From positions 1 through 36,804 of the forward strand of contig JAZQUX010000116.1 of the NCBI GenBank assembly GCA_045631585.1: a stretch of DNA of 36,804 nt, in the 5' to 3' direction. The translations under genes and the position numbers were made by a program. The notes beneath the pieces were generated by a model. It saw only the letters and a list, made by a program, of their open reading frames with translations, searched no databases and had not been told where the DNA came from. Positions 169 through 33,317 of this stretch are shown piece by piece. The stretch's first letter is position 1. Each line of letters starts with the position of its first letter. The stretch is from Eubacteriales bacterium. Its GTDB lineage: Bacteria; Bacillota; Clostridia; Oscillospirales; CAG-272.

Positions 169-256
169 AAAAAATGAACGCAGTAATATATGCGCGGTTC
201 TCGTCCTACAACCAAACAGAACGGTCAATAGAAGGCCAGCTTGAAGATTGTATGTC
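169..256 (+). repeat. 88-bp exact direct repeat with the window end (36717-36804)
   Basis: AAAAAATGAACGCAG...GATTGTATGTC is identical at both ends; the preceding ~150 bp are homologous but diverged. Confidence 0.95.
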
Positions 257-1748
257 CTACGCCGAGCGCAACGGATACAATGTCATAAAGTCCTACATCG
301 ACCGCGCCAAGAGCGGCACCGATGCGGAGAAACGCACGGGTTTTCAAAAAATGATCTCCGACAGCGCATCGGGGCAGTTCGACACGGTACTTGTATGGAA
401 GCTCGACCGATTCGCGCGAAACCGATACGACAGCGCAAACTACAAATACAAATTAAAAAAGAACGGTGTCAGGCTGGTATCTGTCAACGAGCCTGTTTCA
501 GACGATCCGACCGGCATCATGCTCGAATCCATCCTTGAAGGCGCGGCAGAGTATTATTCCGCGAACCTGTCCCAAAACGTCAAGCGCGGTATCCGCATAT
601 CGCTGGAACACGGCAACTATATCGGCGGTATCACGCCATTCGGGTATCGGATCGATAACAAAAAAGTTATCGTCAACGATGCCGAAGCTGACGCCGTGCG
701 CTATATCTTTGAGCAGTACAACACCGGAGCATCGTGCAAGCAGATTGCCGCCGACCTCAACGCCAAAGGCTTGAAACCGCGCATGTCTGACCGATTCAAG
801 GAAACATCGTTTACGGTCATCCTCAAAAATCGCAAGTACATCGGTGAGTATAGCGCGGATGGCGTGGACTATCCCGACATCTATCCTCAGATCGTAGATA
901 CAGCCCTGTTTGAAGCCGTCCAGCGTAAGATCAACGCCAACAAACGTGCACCCGGAGCAGGGAAGGCAAAGGTCGATTACCTGCTGCAAGGCAAGGCATA
1001 CTGCGGACACTGCGGCGCGCCGCTGGTCGGCGAGAGCGGCAAGAGCAAGACAGGCGCGATACATAATTACTACGCTTGCGCCGTCAAAAAGAAGCACCAC
1101 AAGTGCAAAAAGAAAAACGAGCGCAAACAGCCGCTGGAGTATTACATCGTCGAGCGTACCGTCAATTACATCCTGACACCGGAGCGCATCGATTTCGTTG
1201 CTGACGCGCTGGTCAAGAAGTATGAGTCCGATTTTAACGCATCTGGCGCGGCGAACCTTGAAAAGACCATCAACCGCCTTGATCGTGAGATATCGGACGC
1301 CGTCGATAATCTGCTTGCCTTTACCGGCAACAAGCCCGTGCAGGACAAAATCGCCGAAAAGATAGAAATCCTGTCCGCCCAAAAACAGGACGCGGAATCA
1401 GACCTTGCAACAATGCGGATCGCCATGAAACACGCGCTGAAGAAAGAAGACTATGTGAAATGGCTGTCATCATTCCGTGGCGGCGATCCGCTCGACGAAA
1501 AATATCAAAAGCGAATAATCGATACCTTTATCAATGCGGTTTATGTCTTTGACGACAAATTGGTGACCTACTACAATGTCAAGGATGATGAGCAGGTCGG
1601 GTATGAAGAAATGCTTGACGATCTGACCGAGGAGGAAAAAAGTTCGGATTTGATTGATTCTGCCCCGCCAAACCTCGTAAAAATCGAACGCCTGATAATC
1701 AAAACGGTAAGGATTTTTGGAGCCATATTCAAAAAGAGCGATGGTTAA
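174..1748 (+). CDS. int: Large serine recombinase (integrase)
   Basis: YARFSS catalytic Ser motif, VWKLDRFARN, recombinase domain (PFGY...), zinc ribbon CGHCG...YYAC...C and a coiled coil. Confidence 0.97.
   Translation: MNAVIYARFSSYNQTERSIEGQLEDCMSYAERNGYNVIKSYIDRAKSGTDAEKRTGFQKMISDSASGQFDTVLVWKLDRFARNRYDSANYKYKLKKNGVRLVSVNEPVSDDPTGIMLESILEGAAEYYSANLSQNVKRGIRISLEHGNYIGGITPFGYRIDNKKVIVNDAEADAVRYIFEQYNTGASCKQIAADLNAKGLKPRMSDRFKETSFTVILKNRKYIGEYSADGVDYPDIYPQIVDTALFEAVQRKINANKRAPGAGKAKVDYLLQGKAYCGHCGAPLVGESGKSKTGAIHNYYACAVKKKHHKCKKKNERKQPLEYYIVERTVNYILTPERIDFVADALVKKYESDFNASGAANLEKTINRLDREISDAVDNLLAFTGNKPVQDKIAEKIEILSAQKQDAESDLATMRIAMKHALKKEDYVKWLSSFRGGDPLDEKYQKRIIDTFINAVYVFDDKLVTYYNVKDDEQVGYEEMLDDLTEEEKSSDLIDSAPPNLVKIERLIIKTVRIFGAIFKKSDG
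1642..1689 (+). other. Candidate attP within the 3' end of the integrase
   Basis: Imperfect inverted repeat GTTCGGATTT(1642-1651)...AAAATCGAAC(1680-1689) centred on CC(1665-1666) in CCCCGCCA. Confidence 0.6.
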
Positions 1749-1766: not shown

Positions 1767-2057
1767 TTATTTTTCATCGATTCTGCGGAACTTTTCCATC
1801 AGCTTTTCGCGCCGCTTGGTAAATGACCGACACATGACATCTGACAGACCGCCTTCACCGAATTTCTTTTTAGCGGCATCGCACCAGCGTGCAAGCTCGT
1901 TCATGCGCGTCTGTGCATCCTGCTTGTGCATCTGCATGGTTTCCATGTCGTTTTCGTCGCGCGCGTCAATAGCGTAGTCAATATGCGATTCAGCGTCCTT
2001 GAACTCATCCTCGATGGTGTCCAGCATTTCCTCGATGACTTTGCTGTTGTGCATCAT
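1767..2057 (-). CDS. Hypothetical helical protein (accessory module gene 3)
   Basis: 96 aa ORF with an RBS (AGGAGG) at the end of the upstream gene; acidic and helical. Confidence 0.85.
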   Translation of the reverse strand: MMHNSKVIEEMLDTIEDEFKDAESHIDYAIDARDENDMETMQMHKQDAQTRMNELARWCDAAKKKFGEGGLSDVMCRSFTKRREKLMEKFRRIDEK

Positions 2058-3192: not shown

Positions 3193-3235
3193 GAGCAAAA
3201 AACATAGAATTTCAAAAGAAATTTCGCAAAACCCC

Positions 3236-3264
3236 TTGACATACCACAATGATTGTGGTATAAT
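3236..3264 (+). promoter_or_regulatory. Consensus sigmaA promoter P1 with a perfect palindromic operator
   Basis: TTGACA(3236-3241)-17bp-TATAAT(3259-3264) with TG extension; ATACCACAAT-G-ATTGTGGTAT at 3241-3261. Confidence 0.9.
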
Positions 3265-3307
3265 ATATACAACAAAGGAAAACAACAAAAACAAAGGAGA
3301 TCACATC

Positions 3308-3622
3308 ATGACAAAGCAGGACGCAATTAGAGAGATCATCACCCGCGGCAACCATGCCTTCGAAGATAGTGACCTTGTGCCCGAGGTCGGCGAGATTTAC
3401 ATGCTCGAAGAGACTGCCAACACCCCCGTCAGAGTGGTCACGAGTGTTAAGGGTCACATCACTAAAAGCACATACGATTTCTTCCTCAAAGCAACCACCG
3501 GCACCGTCTATCTGTTTAAGGTCACGAAAGCAAATCAGCACAAGTACATGGACTGGGACTACAACACCGTCCGCATCCACACGCACTCCATTGACGGCGA
3601 GCTCCGCTGCATGGCTGACTAA
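3308..3622 (+). CDS. Small orphan protein, 104 aa (candidate anti-defence protein)
   Basis: AAGGAG RBS before ATG 3308; first gene after P1; function inferred from context only. Confidence 0.8.
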   Translation: MTKQDAIREIITRGNHAFEDSDLVPEVGEIYMLEETANTPVRVVTSVKGHITKSTYDFFLKATTGTVYLFKVTKANQHKYMDWDYNTVRIHTHSIDGELRCMAD

Positions 3623-3666
3623 CACATCGAGCGCGGCGGTTAACCGCGCAGAAAGGAATAAAAATC

Positions 3667-3951
3667 ATGAAATTTGGTCTTTTTACTCTGCAAAGCACCG
3701 ATCACCTTGTCCGCTGCATCGACGGCAAGCTGTCCCTGATCGACACCCCGGCATATGTCGAAGGCTCCGCAAAGAGATTCGATTCGTACGTTGACGCCCC
3801 CGAAATCCCGGCAAAGGAATCCGAGCTTGAAATCAAGCTGCGGAACCAAGGTACGCTGCTGACATCCAGCCGCTCCGTTGCCGCAGTCCTCTACGGTGTA
3901 CCGGACGACGTTGAGCTGTACACCGCCGAGGACGGAATGTGCAAGCTGTAA
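3667..3951 (+). CDS. Small acidic orphan protein, 94 aa (candidate anti-defence protein)
   Basis: AAAGGA RBS; second gene of the cassette; function inferred from context only. Confidence 0.8.
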   Translation: MKFGLFTLQSTDHLVRCIDGKLSLIDTPAYVEGSAKRFDSYVDAPEIPAKESELEIKLRNQGTLLTSSRSVAAVLYGVPDDVELYTAEDGMCKL

Positions 3952-3956
3952 ACCCA

Positions 3957-3985
3957 TTGACAATTTAATAAAACTGTGCTATAAT
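3957..3985 (+). promoter_or_regulatory. Consensus sigmaA promoter P2 for the small RNA
   Basis: TTGACA(3957-3962)-17bp-TATAAT(3980-3985) with TG at 3977-3978; expected +1 near 3992. Confidence 0.9.
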
Positions 3986-3991
3986 AACACT

Positions 3992-4020
3992 GTCAGCCGG
4001 AAACGGCTGTGGATTGAAAT
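3992..4020 (+). CRISPR. Solitary type I-C-like CRISPR repeat (not an array)
   Basis: GTCAGCCGGAAACGGCTGTGGATTGAAAT: starts GTC, forms hairpin CAGCCG-GAAA-CGGCTG and ends with the 11-nt I-C handle TGGATTGAAAT. Confidence 0.8.
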
Positions 4021-4055
4021 TATTATTTGAACATATACGGAGACGTATGGCAGAT

Positions 4056-4087
4056 AGCACAGTGATCTATGATTGCTGTGCTTTTTG
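4056..4087 (+). terminator. Intrinsic terminator of the small RNA (probably conditional)
   Basis: AGCACAGTGATC-tat-GATTGCTGTGCT (12 bp with 2 G.U pairs) followed by a T run. Confidence 0.8.
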
Positions 4088-4110
4088 CTTTTGATTGGAG
4101 GTAAAAAATC

Positions 4111-4593
4111 ATGAGAATCATCAAAATATACACCGTGAACGTTTGGAGCGCGAATCATTATCGAGACACCAACTACGAAAATTTCTACAGCCGCGCCGAC
4201 GCTTACCGATATCTGTGCGACTTCGCGCAGGGCTGGAAAGAGTATTCCGATCATGGCTACGACAGCCCTGAAATCATGGATGTCGGCTGGATTTATTGCA
4301 GCCTCGTACCGATCAATGATGGCGTGACACTCCCGGAAGATCCGTCAGAGCTGTTTTCCGATGACAACTTTAATTTGGACGACGGCAGCTTTGTATACCT
4401 TGATCTGCCACCGTACACCGACTTCTGCGTCGAGCATGAGATGCCATACGGCGGAGACAGTTGGACGCTGTATGCAGACGGTCACATCGAGCAGATGTAC
4501 CACGACGGCAGACAATCCAAAACCATGGAAAAATACATCAACGACTGGAAATCGCGTGGATGGGACGGTAAAGTCGAGGAGGTGATCCTGTGA
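4111..4593 (+). CDS. Highly acidic, aromatic-rich orphan protein, 160 aa (candidate Acr or DNA mimic)
   Basis: GGAGGT RBS; by hand count about 30 D+E versus 12 K+R; lies directly upstream of an HTH gene. Confidence 0.85.
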   Translation: MRIIKIYTVNVWSANHYRDTNYENFYSRADAYRYLCDFAQGWKEYSDHGYDSPEIMDVGWIYCSLVPINDGVTLPEDPSELFSDDNFNLDDGSFVYLDLPPYTDFCVEHEMPYGGDSWTLYADGHIEQMYHDGRQSKTMEKYINDWKSRGWDGKVEEVIL

Positions 4594-4784
4594 CCACCAT
4601 GACTTTCCGCGAGCTTCTCTCCGCCTCCGGCATGACCATCCGCCAGTTTGCCGCCTATTTCGACATCCCCGTCCGCACCGTCGAAAGTTGGAGCAGCCAA
4701 AATCCAAACGTCAAAGGCAAGTGCGCACCGTACCTCATTGATCTGCTGCACTTCAAGCTCGTCCATGACGGAATTTTGAAATAA
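4590..4784 (+). CDS. Small XRE-type HTH regulator (Aca-like)
   Basis: FRELLSASGMTIRQFAAYFDIPVRTVESW HTH pattern; GTGA overlap with the upstream gene (alternative ATG at 4599). Confidence 0.85.
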   Translation: MTTMTFRELLSASGMTIRQFAAYFDIPVRTVESWSSQNPNVKGKCAPYLIDLLHFKLVHDGILK

Positions 4785-4818
4785 AAAAACGCACGGCATC
4801 AAAACCGTGCGTCTTTTT
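4783..4818. terminator. Bidirectional intrinsic terminator
   Basis: A run, ACGCACGG-catcaaaa-CCGTGCGT, then a T run; lies between convergent genes. Confidence 0.85.
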
Positions 4819-33077: not shown

Positions 33078-33317
33078 TCAAATAATAACATCTCTCGGAT
33101 TATCGATCCCGAGATAATCACACAGTGTTTTGACCAGCGACCATTTAAGATCATACCGCCCGTCAAGCACTTGCGACAGCCACTCCGCGTTTTTTCCGAT
33201 CGCGTTTGCCGCCTCGTTGAGATCGCCCCGCTCATAGATCCGGTTCCAAAGCTCAACCTGTACTGGGAAGCGATTTTTCTTTTTCATCGCCCGGTCAAGA
33301 TTTTTCTGATATGCCAC
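33078..33317 (-). CDS. XRE HTH protein (Cro-like candidate)
   Basis: LNEAANAIGKNAEWLSQVLDGRYDLKWSLVKTLCDYLGI. Confidence 0.8.
   Translation of the reverse strand: MAYQKNLDRAMKKKNRFPVQVELWNRIYERGDLNEAANAIGKNAEWLSQVLDGRYDLKWSLVKTLCDYLGIDNPRDVII

Follow-up and report, generated by a model that had tools for sequence, protein, structure and literature searches.

The window, by which we mean the whole stretch of 36,804 nucleotides analysed here, is by its gene content a siphophage, and a temperate one because it carries a large serine recombinase; only binning ties the contig to its putative host MAG, and the two ends of the contig overlap. In the accessory region of this phage, in the intergenic space between ORFs 3667–3951 and 4111–4593, lies a cassette (3957–4092, + strand) made up of an extended promoter, one 29-nt repeat mimic (psiR), a 35-nt spacer-like stretch (psiS) and an intrinsic terminator (Table 1). 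The window's genes include phage genes and, as an earlier sequence-only reading had stated, no cas genes. Comparison of the neighbouring proteins with Pfam, PADLOC, PHROGs, PDB, GenBank phages and Atlas returned nothing usable, and none had a match among known anti-CRISPRs or solved structures. Homologues of the 64-aa ORF (44% identical over 34 aa) adjoin elements of the kind described below in two related contigs (L083 and L089), and its place at the end of an operon is one that we take to resemble that of aca genes.

Table 1. Features of the accessory block surrounding the cassette.
Feature	Position	Strand	Remarks
Large serine recombinase (integrase)	174–1748	+	phrog_95, E 8.6e-111; bounds accessory block
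Second extended promoter	3236–3264	+	12/12; leads the small upstream ORFs of this block
Small ORF, 104 aa	3308–3622	+	no known family
Small ORF, 94 aa	3667–3951	+	no known family; stop codon 5 nt before -35 box
Promoter	3957–3985	+	TTGACA (3957–3962), 17-nt spacer, extended -10 TGcTATAAT (3977–3985); 12/12 with TG
Repeat mimic (psiR)	3992–4020	+	GU, 6-bp stem, GAAA loop, handle TGGATTGAAAT
Spacer-like stretch (psiS)	4021–4055	+	35 nt
Intrinsic terminator	4056–4092	+	12-pair stem-loop 4056–4082, then U-rich tail TTTTGCTTTT 4083–4092
ORF, 160 aa	4111–4593	+	no known family; own ribosome-binding site past terminator
ORF, 64 aa	4590–4784	+	sub-threshold helix-turn-helix matches; HTH_23 E 0.0055, 16.9 bits, below cut-off
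Terminator	4789–4812		after 64-aa ORF

The -10 box ends 6 nt upstream of G3992, the predicted transcription start: this, together with the full promoter score, bears out the sequence-only reading, which had proposed an extended sigmaA promoter with +1 at about G3992. The parts it had listed downstream (a 6-bp stem with a GNRA loop, an exact 11-nt handle, then 33–35 nt and a terminator) are likewise in place. Within psiR a leading GT precedes a stem in which 3994–3999 pairs with 4004–4009 around the GAAA loop (4000–4003), and the handle, UGGAUUGAAAU, is exact at 4010–4020. Cleavage by Cas5c is predicted between 4009 and 4010, on the model of the enzyme described in PMC8524198. The first part of psiS (4021–4034) is predicted to be single-stranded, and a small hairpin (AUACG-GAGA-CGUAU) is predicted at 4035–4048. 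For the 99-nt RNA the predicted fold has an energy of -38.7 kcal/mol (z = -5.84), a value equalled by none of 200 shuffles. One suggestion was not borne out: the start of the terminator (ATAGCAC) had been likened to that of the repeat (GTCGCAC), with the terminator standing in for the 3' repeat hairpin. This is unsupported, since in relatives the terminator begins anywhere from 17 to 48 nt past the handle, and such a stand-in is thus not a conserved part of the design.

When positions 3200–4800 were compared by BLAST with 400 genomes of the host family, matches were found in 84, mostly on the two promoters (3957–3985 and 3236–3264), and none extended past 3993: the promoter of the cassette is thus of a kind typical of the host family. 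Rfam gave no match at gathering thresholds and only noise within 3900–4150 (E 5.8 and 9.8). The exact 29-mer of psiR was not found in IMG/VR, and matches among GenBank phages covered promoter-like sequence only.

The relationship of psiR to CRISPR repeats was assessed with a covariance model (R1) of 15 distinct CRISPR-array repeats from the host family, from which the window element was left out. The best match of R1 in the window falls exactly on 3992–4020, over the full length of the model (28.5 bits, E 5.9e-5), and the next best reaches 10.3 bits; the array repeats themselves score 41–57 bits, psiR about half of that. The handle is identical to the tail of 14 of the 15 array repeats. The bare 11-mer is unremarkable alone, with four occurrences in the 2.48-Mb MAG, and when one mismatch is allowed 29 of 100 shuffles match or exceed the count in the window. 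A relaxed scan of the MAG for handle plus hairpin returned only the window element itself and look-alikes in coding regions. The window contains a single R1 match, and no second repeat at spacer distance, such as defines an array, was found in it; at the next handle-like site (18652) a stem is lacking. By the independent covariance model and by the covariation seen among related elements (below), psiR belongs to the type I-C repeat class as an RNA motif, and the sequence-only reading was right to call it a solitary repeat of that type.

Like canonical I-C array repeats, psiR has a 2-nt GU 5' overhang, a C-G-closed stem-loop and the 11-nt 3' tail; it differs in being solitary, in its length (29 nt as against 32–34 nt in array repeats), in its stem (6 bp as against 7–8 bp) and in its GAAA tetraloop. 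It is thus a weaker repeat, its stem 1–2 bp shorter than those of the arrays, and its acceptance by Cas5c is an assumption. According to PMC8524198, BhaCas5c reads the base of the stem and U22-G23-G24, not the loop.

Related elements were sought with the pattern GTC-N5-GAAA-N5-G-handle, in which the stem is left free. Beyond the window the pattern matched 23 sites, one on a viral contig and 22 on metagenome contigs. All six stem pairs are formed at 13 of these, with eight different stems, and most of these 13 sites share the same promoter-to-terminator design and lie beside phage genes; on one contig (L068) there are homologues of endolysin, tape-measure and capsid proteins. When all 24 sites (15 distinct sequences) are taken together, stem positions are paired in 82% of cells as against 57% in shuffles, and the covariation score is 0.619 as against 0.192: no shuffle out of 500 reached this score, which falls away once the partners are slid. 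A promoter scoring at least 10 of 13 is present at 11 of the 24 sites, its -10 box ending 6 nt before the GTC in 10 of these 11, and a terminator follows at 16 of 24; the succession of psiR, psiS and terminator recurs in 15 related elements. The GAAA-type element was found in none of 400 other genomes of the host family, and a search for related viral loci by way of the flanking proteins yielded nothing useful.

Cas1, Csd1 and Cas5d were not found in the MAG (78% complete), nor was a CRISPR array: k-mers flagged 25 regions, and the eight that were inspected are all tandem or coding repeats. Within the genus, Csd1 was found in 0 of 13 genomes and Cas5d in 0 of 7. Of 400 genomes of the host family, 45 have Cas5d and about 32 carry the exact handle in at least three repeat–spacer matches; Csd1 was recovered from five of five array-bearing controls; by these counts the cognate I-C system is common in the family. 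Its arrays have a period of 67–68 nt, and none of 217 distinct spacers from the collected arrays matches the window or the related contigs.

In 9 of the 45 family I-C loci a gene with the same succession of promoter, psiR, psiS and terminator stands beside cas5c on the opposite strand. These host counterparts have the promoter spacing of the window element, and in one of them (in G271) the stem is likewise short and the loop GAAA. In seven of the eight host loci that could be tested, a partial target flanked by TTC lies nearby. Four of the eight have a TTC site whose seed agrees in full (10 of 10), the only mismatches falling at position 6 or 12; among the others, two agree at 9 of 10 and one at 8 of 10 (TTC), and one agrees at 9 of 10 next to a CTC motif. 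The suggestion in the sequence-only reading of a CreA/CreR-like function thus gains support from I-C loci of the host family, which hold RNA genes of the same build together with cis targets.

For psiS itself, no target was found in the MAG, where the candidates (in contig C82 and at 33087 of the window) lie within genes or at their ends, next to an unsuitable PAM. In 390.6 kb from the 45 family I-C loci no site flanked by TTC agrees at 9 or more of 10 seed positions, and an order-wide scan for PAM plus seed gave about as many matches as a reversed-pattern control. The handle joined to the psiS seed was met elsewhere eight times in 185,579 species genomes and once in a virus, each time chance-like and without a hairpin. 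The pseudo-spacer of one relative (L079) agrees with 11 of its first 12 positions (mismatch at 6) at a TTC-flanked site that precedes cas3 in genome G211 by about 216 nt; for all pseudo-spacers tried together, chance would give about 0.1 such matches, and we regard this site as a candidate cas target.

Our preferred reading, which we hold to be probable, is that the cassette encodes a viral crRNA-like RNA anti-CRISPR, of the Cracr or Racr kind, which is cut by host Cas5c and loaded by Cascade. We infer transcription, cleavage, loading and an effect on immunity from the sequence, as follows. The strong constitutive promoter would drive a transcript whose first base is also that of a miniature I-C repeat, and host Cas5c would cleave it on the 3' side of the 6-bp stem, at its base. 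The downstream product, which would run from the handle through the 35-nt pseudo-spacer to the terminator hairpin, could then be taken up as a crRNA by Cas5c, Cas8c and Cas7c, and if abundant would divert these proteins from the crRNAs of the host. Should the first 12–18 nt of the pseudo-spacer partly match a TTC-flanked promoter, Cascade may in addition be parked there as a repressor, much as the similarly built CreR-like RNAs of hosts seem to repress their own cas5c promoters. Against this reading weigh the failure to find an I-C system in the MAG or genus or a target for psiS, the lack of any convincing second instance of the handle joined to the psiS seed, the rarity of the element in the host family, its weaker repeat, and neighbours that match nothing known. 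Within this anti-CRISPR reading, we give a guide function of the pseudo-spacer slightly better than an even chance, and competition pure and simple slightly less than one.

Other readings place different weight on the same features. If psiR and psiS were a one-spacer mini-CRISPR serving conflicts among phages, the RNA would be a real crRNA sending Cascade-Cas3 against a rival phage or a resident prophage (superinfection exclusion). Viral mini-arrays directed against other viruses are known (PMC10120712), the 35 nt of psiS are the usual spacer length in arrays of the family, and two units stand in tandem on one related contig (from run X5); the two spacers of that contig, however, share their first 19 nt, as would be expected of a duplicated regulator more than of acquired spacers. 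There is also a TTC-flanked site agreeing with 17 of the first 18 positions of psiS (mismatch at 6); it falls within an ORF of 153 aa belonging to a prophage replication module of genome G537 (L163, 5151–5188), and it recurs in the same phage lineage in IMG/VR (L167). As a target of psiS this site is statistically indistinguishable from chance, since about 0.5 matches of this kind are estimated to arise by chance in IMG/VR and both matches represent one lineage; moreover the agreement ends after position 21 of 35, IMG/VR contains no full protospacer for psiS, and Cas5d was not found in G537. The lack of a second repeat in the window, the hairpin predicted within the would-be spacer and the variation of the spacer-like length across the family (17 to 48 nt) also speak against a mini-CRISPR, which we judge quite unlikely.

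Nor do we think it likely that the cassette is an inert relic of a host CreR-like or array repeat, or a repeat-like RNA that makes no use of Cas proteins, be it a common small RNA or the 5' leader of gene 4111–4593. The failure to find an I-C system in the MAG or genus, or a target for psiS, would fit such an origin, and a gene on the same strand 19 nt past the terminator makes attenuation conceivable in the window. Against this, over at least eight different stems the pairing is compensated and both the exact handle and the GU overhang are retained, which argues for selection on the determinants read by Cas5c and Cascade; the spacing from promoter to repeat is constant in 10 of 11 members, and Rfam offers no family into which the RNA falls. 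In 8 of 15 members, furthermore, the next downstream ORF is convergent, and in contigs from four of four metagenome runs the unit is kept while both flanks are exchanged, the unlike sequence starting at about 3950 on one side and at 4089–4091 on the other: by both observations the element appears to be a stand-alone gene and not a leader. The least probable reading, to which we give very little credence, is that the repeat copy acts as DNA, as a site for recombination or integration into host I-C arrays (a possibility that PMC10651486 raises for solitary repeat units). A serine integrase gene lies 2.2 kb from the element, and others, 33% identical to it, adjoin the element in three related contigs (L072, L074 and L075). 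A DNA site, however, would require neither a consensus promoter 6 nt upstream, nor a terminator, nor compensatory changes in a stem; and because the stems are unlike those of every collected array repeat, homology to arrays is limited to 14–15 nt.

Returning to the crRNA-like RNA anti-CRISPR that we favour, a broader conjecture, which on balance we doubt, is that these elements form a distinct and widespread subfamily of miniaturised I-C crRNA-like genes, shuffled as cassettes by temperate gut phages and copying the CreR-type autoregulators of their hosts rather than array repeats. If so, the variable pseudo-spacers would amount to a phage-side guide library by which Cascade is reprogrammed and cas operons, other defence promoters or rival phages are silenced. 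Descriptions of RNA anti-CRISPRs and of crRNA-like regulators from viruses date only from 2023–2026, and type I-C cases put to the test are few. The cassette, about 100 nt long and equipped with its own predicted promoter and terminator, is a clean candidate. Some 15 natural variants with compensated stems and differing pseudo-spacers make up a ready-made family, and CreR-like genes with readable cis targets are available in the same bacterial family. The questions raised concern the minimal size of a repeat for Cas5c, the copying by phages of host regulators versus array repeats, and the pseudo-spacer as a guide. Because only 14–15 nt are held in common, similarity searches with canonical repeats may miss such elements and so under-count them.

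Among known systems, host I-C crlRNAs, produced by solitary repeat units next to cas5c (CreR/CreA and CRISIS; bioRxiv 10.1101/2024.12.27.630466 and 10.1101/2023.03.10.532045), are described as sharing with the window element an 11-nt handle, a 5' hairpin, a short guide and a 3' hairpin; for I-C crlRNAs the handle and 3' hairpin are reported from small-RNA sequencing (bioRxiv 10.1101/2024.12.27.630466). As presented in these two preprints, the host RNAs have partial, TTC-flanked targets in cis and their genes lie inside cas loci, whereas the window element is borne by a phage with no cas genes around it, has the canonical handle exactly, and has no TTC-flanked cis target on the phage's own contigs.

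Racr elements (PMC10651486) are solitary repeat units in phages or prophages, intergenic and situated just past a predicted promoter, that mimic a CRISPR-type repeat. The window unit, too, is solitary, intergenic and not beside cas genes. One of them, RacrIC1, is reported to inhibit type I-C and so indicates that an I-C repeat mimic can protect a phage; by the same account Racr hosts carry the cognate CRISPR-Cas subtype in 83% of cases. RacrIC1 is described there as co-transcribed, 11 nt downstream of acrIC5, whereas the window element has its own predicted promoter and neighbours without a family. The inhibitory product of RacrIF1, as given in PMC10651486, lies upstream of the processing site; it is made up of a leader and a hairpin and gives rise to a filament of Cas6f and Cas7f. 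With its start predicted at the first base of the repeat, the window RNA would have no leader 5' of the cleavage site, where the active part of RacrIF1 lies, and only the product of handle plus pseudo-spacer would be long enough to act.

The anatomy therefore appears to fit the guide-type (Cracr or crlRNA) design better than that of RacrIF1. Viral Cracrs, I-C candidates included, are described in bioRxiv 10.1101/2024.10.29.618823 as one psiR and one psiS with a terminator, whose RNAs repress cas or creT promoters. Like them, the window element joins psiR and psiS to a rho-independent terminator, is phage-borne and lies outside CRISPR-cas loci, and both designs mirror the CreR-type genes of hosts, found here in the host family. 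The hallmark of Cracrs in that preprint, at least nine PAM-proximal pairs between psiS and a cas or creT promoter or the spacer of a host CreR/CreA, was not found for the window psiS in the MAG or the 45 I-C loci, and the order-wide scan stayed at control level. The novelty implied by the sequence-only reading does not stand, since both kinds are in print (Racr in PMC10651486, Cracr in bioRxiv 10.1101/2024.10.29.618823): elements of this kind have been known since 2023, and the window cassette is, on the sequence comparisons given here, a new and well-supported example.

Arrays whose repeats end in exactly the 11-nt handle of the element were found in about 32 of 400 host-family genomes, each with at least three repeat-spacer matches. 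Csd1 adjoins the arrays in 5/5 genomes tested, and Cas5d was found in 45 of the 400. A covariance model was built from 15 distinct host-family array repeats (GTC, a 7-8-bp stem, a loop, the returning stem and TGGATTGAAAT) and run over the window with filters off. It returned a single match at E < 1, covering the full model at 3992-4020 (28.5 bits, E 5.9e-5); the second-best match scored 10.3 bits and genuine array repeats score 41-57 bits. By this independent measure, which bears out the identity proposed in the sequence-only reading, the phage copy clearly belongs to the type I-C repeats, though in a shortened and weaker form.

The anatomy described in that reading at 3957-4087 was also recovered: a promoter matching at 12/12 positions with its TG extension; 6 nt past its end, G3992 as the first base of GTCAGCCG-GAAA-CGGCTG-TGGATTGAAAT; then 35 nt and a 12-pair hairpin with a T-rich tail. 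The handle 11-mer by itself occurs at chance level. The 99-nt RNA folds much better than its shuffles (z = -5.84; 0/200 as good), with three predicted hairpins: the repeat stem, a small one and the terminator.

Coordinates of the element, its surroundings and the loci compared with it
Feature	Location	Strand	Remarks
Large serine integrase	window 174-1748		
96-aa protein	window 1767-2057	-	leftward accessory operon
Leftward operon	window 3072 to 1767	-	accessory block
Second extended promoter	window 3236-3264		12/12 with TG; heads the small orphan genes
Small orphan genes	window 3308-3622 and 3667-3951		rightward
Element promoter	window 3957-3985	+	TTGACA, 17 nt, TGcTATAAT
Repeat mimic	window 3992-4020	+	handle 4010-4020
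Small predicted hairpin	window 4035-4048	+	
Terminator hairpin	window 4056-4082	+	
Contig end repeat	window 36565-36804		copies positions 17-256
Host CreR-like gene	L056 9700-9860	+	type I-C locus
Host CreR-like gene	L055 6745-6850	-	type I-C locus
Host CreR-like genes	L117, L118, L125, L141, L143, L144, L108		type I-C loci
Solitary repeat, metagenome contig	L088 4419-4447		GAAA-type
Its target	L088 about 4620-4657		TTC-flanked
Single-handle sites	G191:C127:1661-1710; G129:C5:34742-34791		one genus
Best pseudo-spacer match	L163 5151-5188; L167 4232-4269		G537 prophage; IMG/VR contig
Pseudo-spacer of a related element	L079 309-367		
Its match	L052 4273-4300		G211, upstream of cas3

The window is the entire 36.8-kb contig C116 of a 2.48-Mb MAG (339 contigs, 78% complete). 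Because it encodes a large serine integrase, an endolysin and holin, tape-measure and major head proteins, a portal, a large terminase and a replication initiator, it is read as a temperate siphophage. The last 240 nt repeat the contig's beginning. Identity is complete over the final 83 nt, where the integrase gene starts, and about 85% over the remainder; the first 27 integrase codons fall within the repeat. Such ends point either to strain variants assembled into one circular genome, or to a tandem or second recombinase. The contig is on this ground probably circular or tandem, and the link between phage and MAG depends on binning. The element lies between integrase and lysis genes in an accessory block, where a leftward operon is joined by rightward small orphan genes; the genes adjoining the element have no known family after database searches. 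One protein of the leftward operon matches the Cas5fv helical domain weakly and below threshold (PF20158, E 7e-4, 20.2 bits; cut-off 25). BLAST against the 400 host-family genomes gave matches in 84, mostly at the element promoter and the second extended promoter and none past 3993; the element promoter is, on these matches, of a type common in the host family.

Related elements were sought with a pattern in which GTC, GAAA, G and the handle were fixed and five stem pairs were free. It matched one IMG/VR contig and 22 metagenome contigs: 13 of the 23 have 6/6 stem pairs (with eight different stems) and three have 5/6. The other seven have 2-4 pairs; six of these carry neither promoter nor terminator and, the seventh (L088) apart as a host locus, look like chance or coding matches. 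The pair count took in all 24 sites (15 distinct sequences), none being left out: 82% of stem cells are paired, against 57% in shuffles, and five of the six pairs vary on both sides. The covariation score of 0.619 (0.192 in shuffles) was reached by 0/500 and collapses once the partners are slid. A promoter of the form TTGAC(A/T)-17/18-TGnTAnnnT is present at 11 of the 24 sites, ending exactly 6 nt upstream of GTC in 10 of the 11. An intrinsic terminator is present at 16/24 sites and begins anywhere from 17 to 48 nt past the handle; because this distance varies, the earlier idea of a terminator taking the place of the 3' repeat hairpin is argued against.

Several members sit among phage genes: serine integrases 33% identical to that of the window adjoin the elements of three contigs (L072, L074 and L075), L068 encodes endolysin, tape-measure and capsid homologues, and the window's 64-aa HTH-like ORF has homologues in L083 and L089. 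A leader function is argued against because the next downstream ORF is convergent in 8 of 15 members. In metagenome contigs from four DNA runs of four studies the unit is kept in 4/4 – run X1, for example, carries 3974-4091 with two differences – and the flanks turn unlike the window at about 3950 and at 4089-4091. These points mark the limits of a promoter-to-terminator cassette, and the element is best described as a stand-alone gene in phages. A single contig of run X5 (window 3957-4127) carries tandem duplicate units whose spacers share their first 19 nt: past 4039, 33 other letters finish a second repeat (same stem, longer loop), and the sequence resumes at 4004.

Nine of the 45 Cas5d-positive genomes carry, opposite in strand to cas5c, a gene of the same build: promoter, about 6 nt, repeat-like hairpin with handle, 24-31 nt, terminator. 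It lies ~130-240 nt upstream of cas5c in eight of them and ~2.6 kb upstream in G389. The copy in G271 (GTCAAC-GAAA-GTTG-TGGGTTGAAAT) has a short stem and a GAAA loop, as in the phage copies. Cis targets were sought for eight of the nine, the gene of G360 being cut by the contig end, and a TTC-flanked partial target lies near seven: 100-160 nt off with 10/10 seed positions and mismatches confined to position 6 or 12 in G271, G296, G325 and G141, with 9/10 in G341 and G389, and with 8/10 in G382. In G046 the site has 9/10 seed positions and a CTC motif. That of G271 overlaps the -10 region of the cas5c promoter. The metagenome contig L088 has cas7, cas3, an I-C array and a solitary repeat with only 4/6 stem pairs; its target, ~210 nt off, matches at 10/10 seed positions with mismatches exactly at 6 and 12. 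We take the genes of the nine loci and L088 to be regulators of the CreR/crlRNA type already published for I-C (bioRxiv 10.1101/2024.12.27.630466). Two sites in one genus each hold a single handle, then a conserved 39-nt stretch and GTC; they may be another regulatory mini-array.

Searches of the MAG, of 390.6 kb taken from 45 I-C loci, of the phage itself and of IMG/VR gave no target for the window's pseudo-spacer, and matches in an order-wide scan were about as numerous as in its reversed control. The best match – TTC plus 17 of the first 18 positions, in a G537 prophage and a same-lineage IMG/VR contig – lies in a phage replication module (Phage_rep_org_N, DnaC-like loader, Cro/CI-type HTH), within an ORF of 153 aa. 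Chance alone is estimated to give about half a hit of this kind in IMG/VR, and Cas5d was not found in G537: the site is indistinguishable from chance and is kept as a lead only. A related element, L079, has a pseudo-spacer that matches a site in G211 lying ~216 nt upstream of cas3: TTC plus 11/12 first positions, the sixth being the mismatch. Chance would account for ~0.1 matches of this kind; the L079 RNA is a candidate viral guide against that cas3 promoter. I-C genes were found neither in the MAG (78% complete) nor in 13 genomes of its genus, the GAAA-type element is absent from the other host-family genomes (400 sampled), and none of 217 array spacers matches the phage.

BhaCas5c is reported to recognise the base of the stem and the U-G-G that opens the handle, and neither the loop nor the 5' overhang; these determinants are all intact in the window's element. 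Since transcription is predicted from the first base of the repeat, the only long product would be handle, pseudo-spacer and terminator hairpin. This is the shape reported for I-C crlRNAs by small-RNA sequencing and for viral Cracrs; in RacrIF1, by contrast, the active part is described as lying upstream of the cut. The product is therefore read as a viral crRNA-like RNA. Host I-C Cascade would load it; at the least it would compete with host crRNAs – even a crRNA without a target is reported to reduce interference (PMC10651486) – and it may act as a guide as well. We are highly confident that the element is a real repeat-derived small-RNA gene. That it subverts host I-C Cascade we consider likely, with guiding and pure competition about evenly placed within that reading.

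Solitary repeat units acting as RNA anti-CRISPRs (PMC10651486), viral crRNA-like repressors, I-C candidates included (bioRxiv 10.1101/2024.10.29.618823), viral regulatory mini-arrays (PMC10120712) and host I-C crlRNAs (bioRxiv 10.1101/2024.12.27.630466) have all been published; the kind of element is thus already known and the window's copy is a new example. The miniature GAAA-loop subfamily may be new, as may the observation that these phage elements resemble host CreR genes rather than array repeats.
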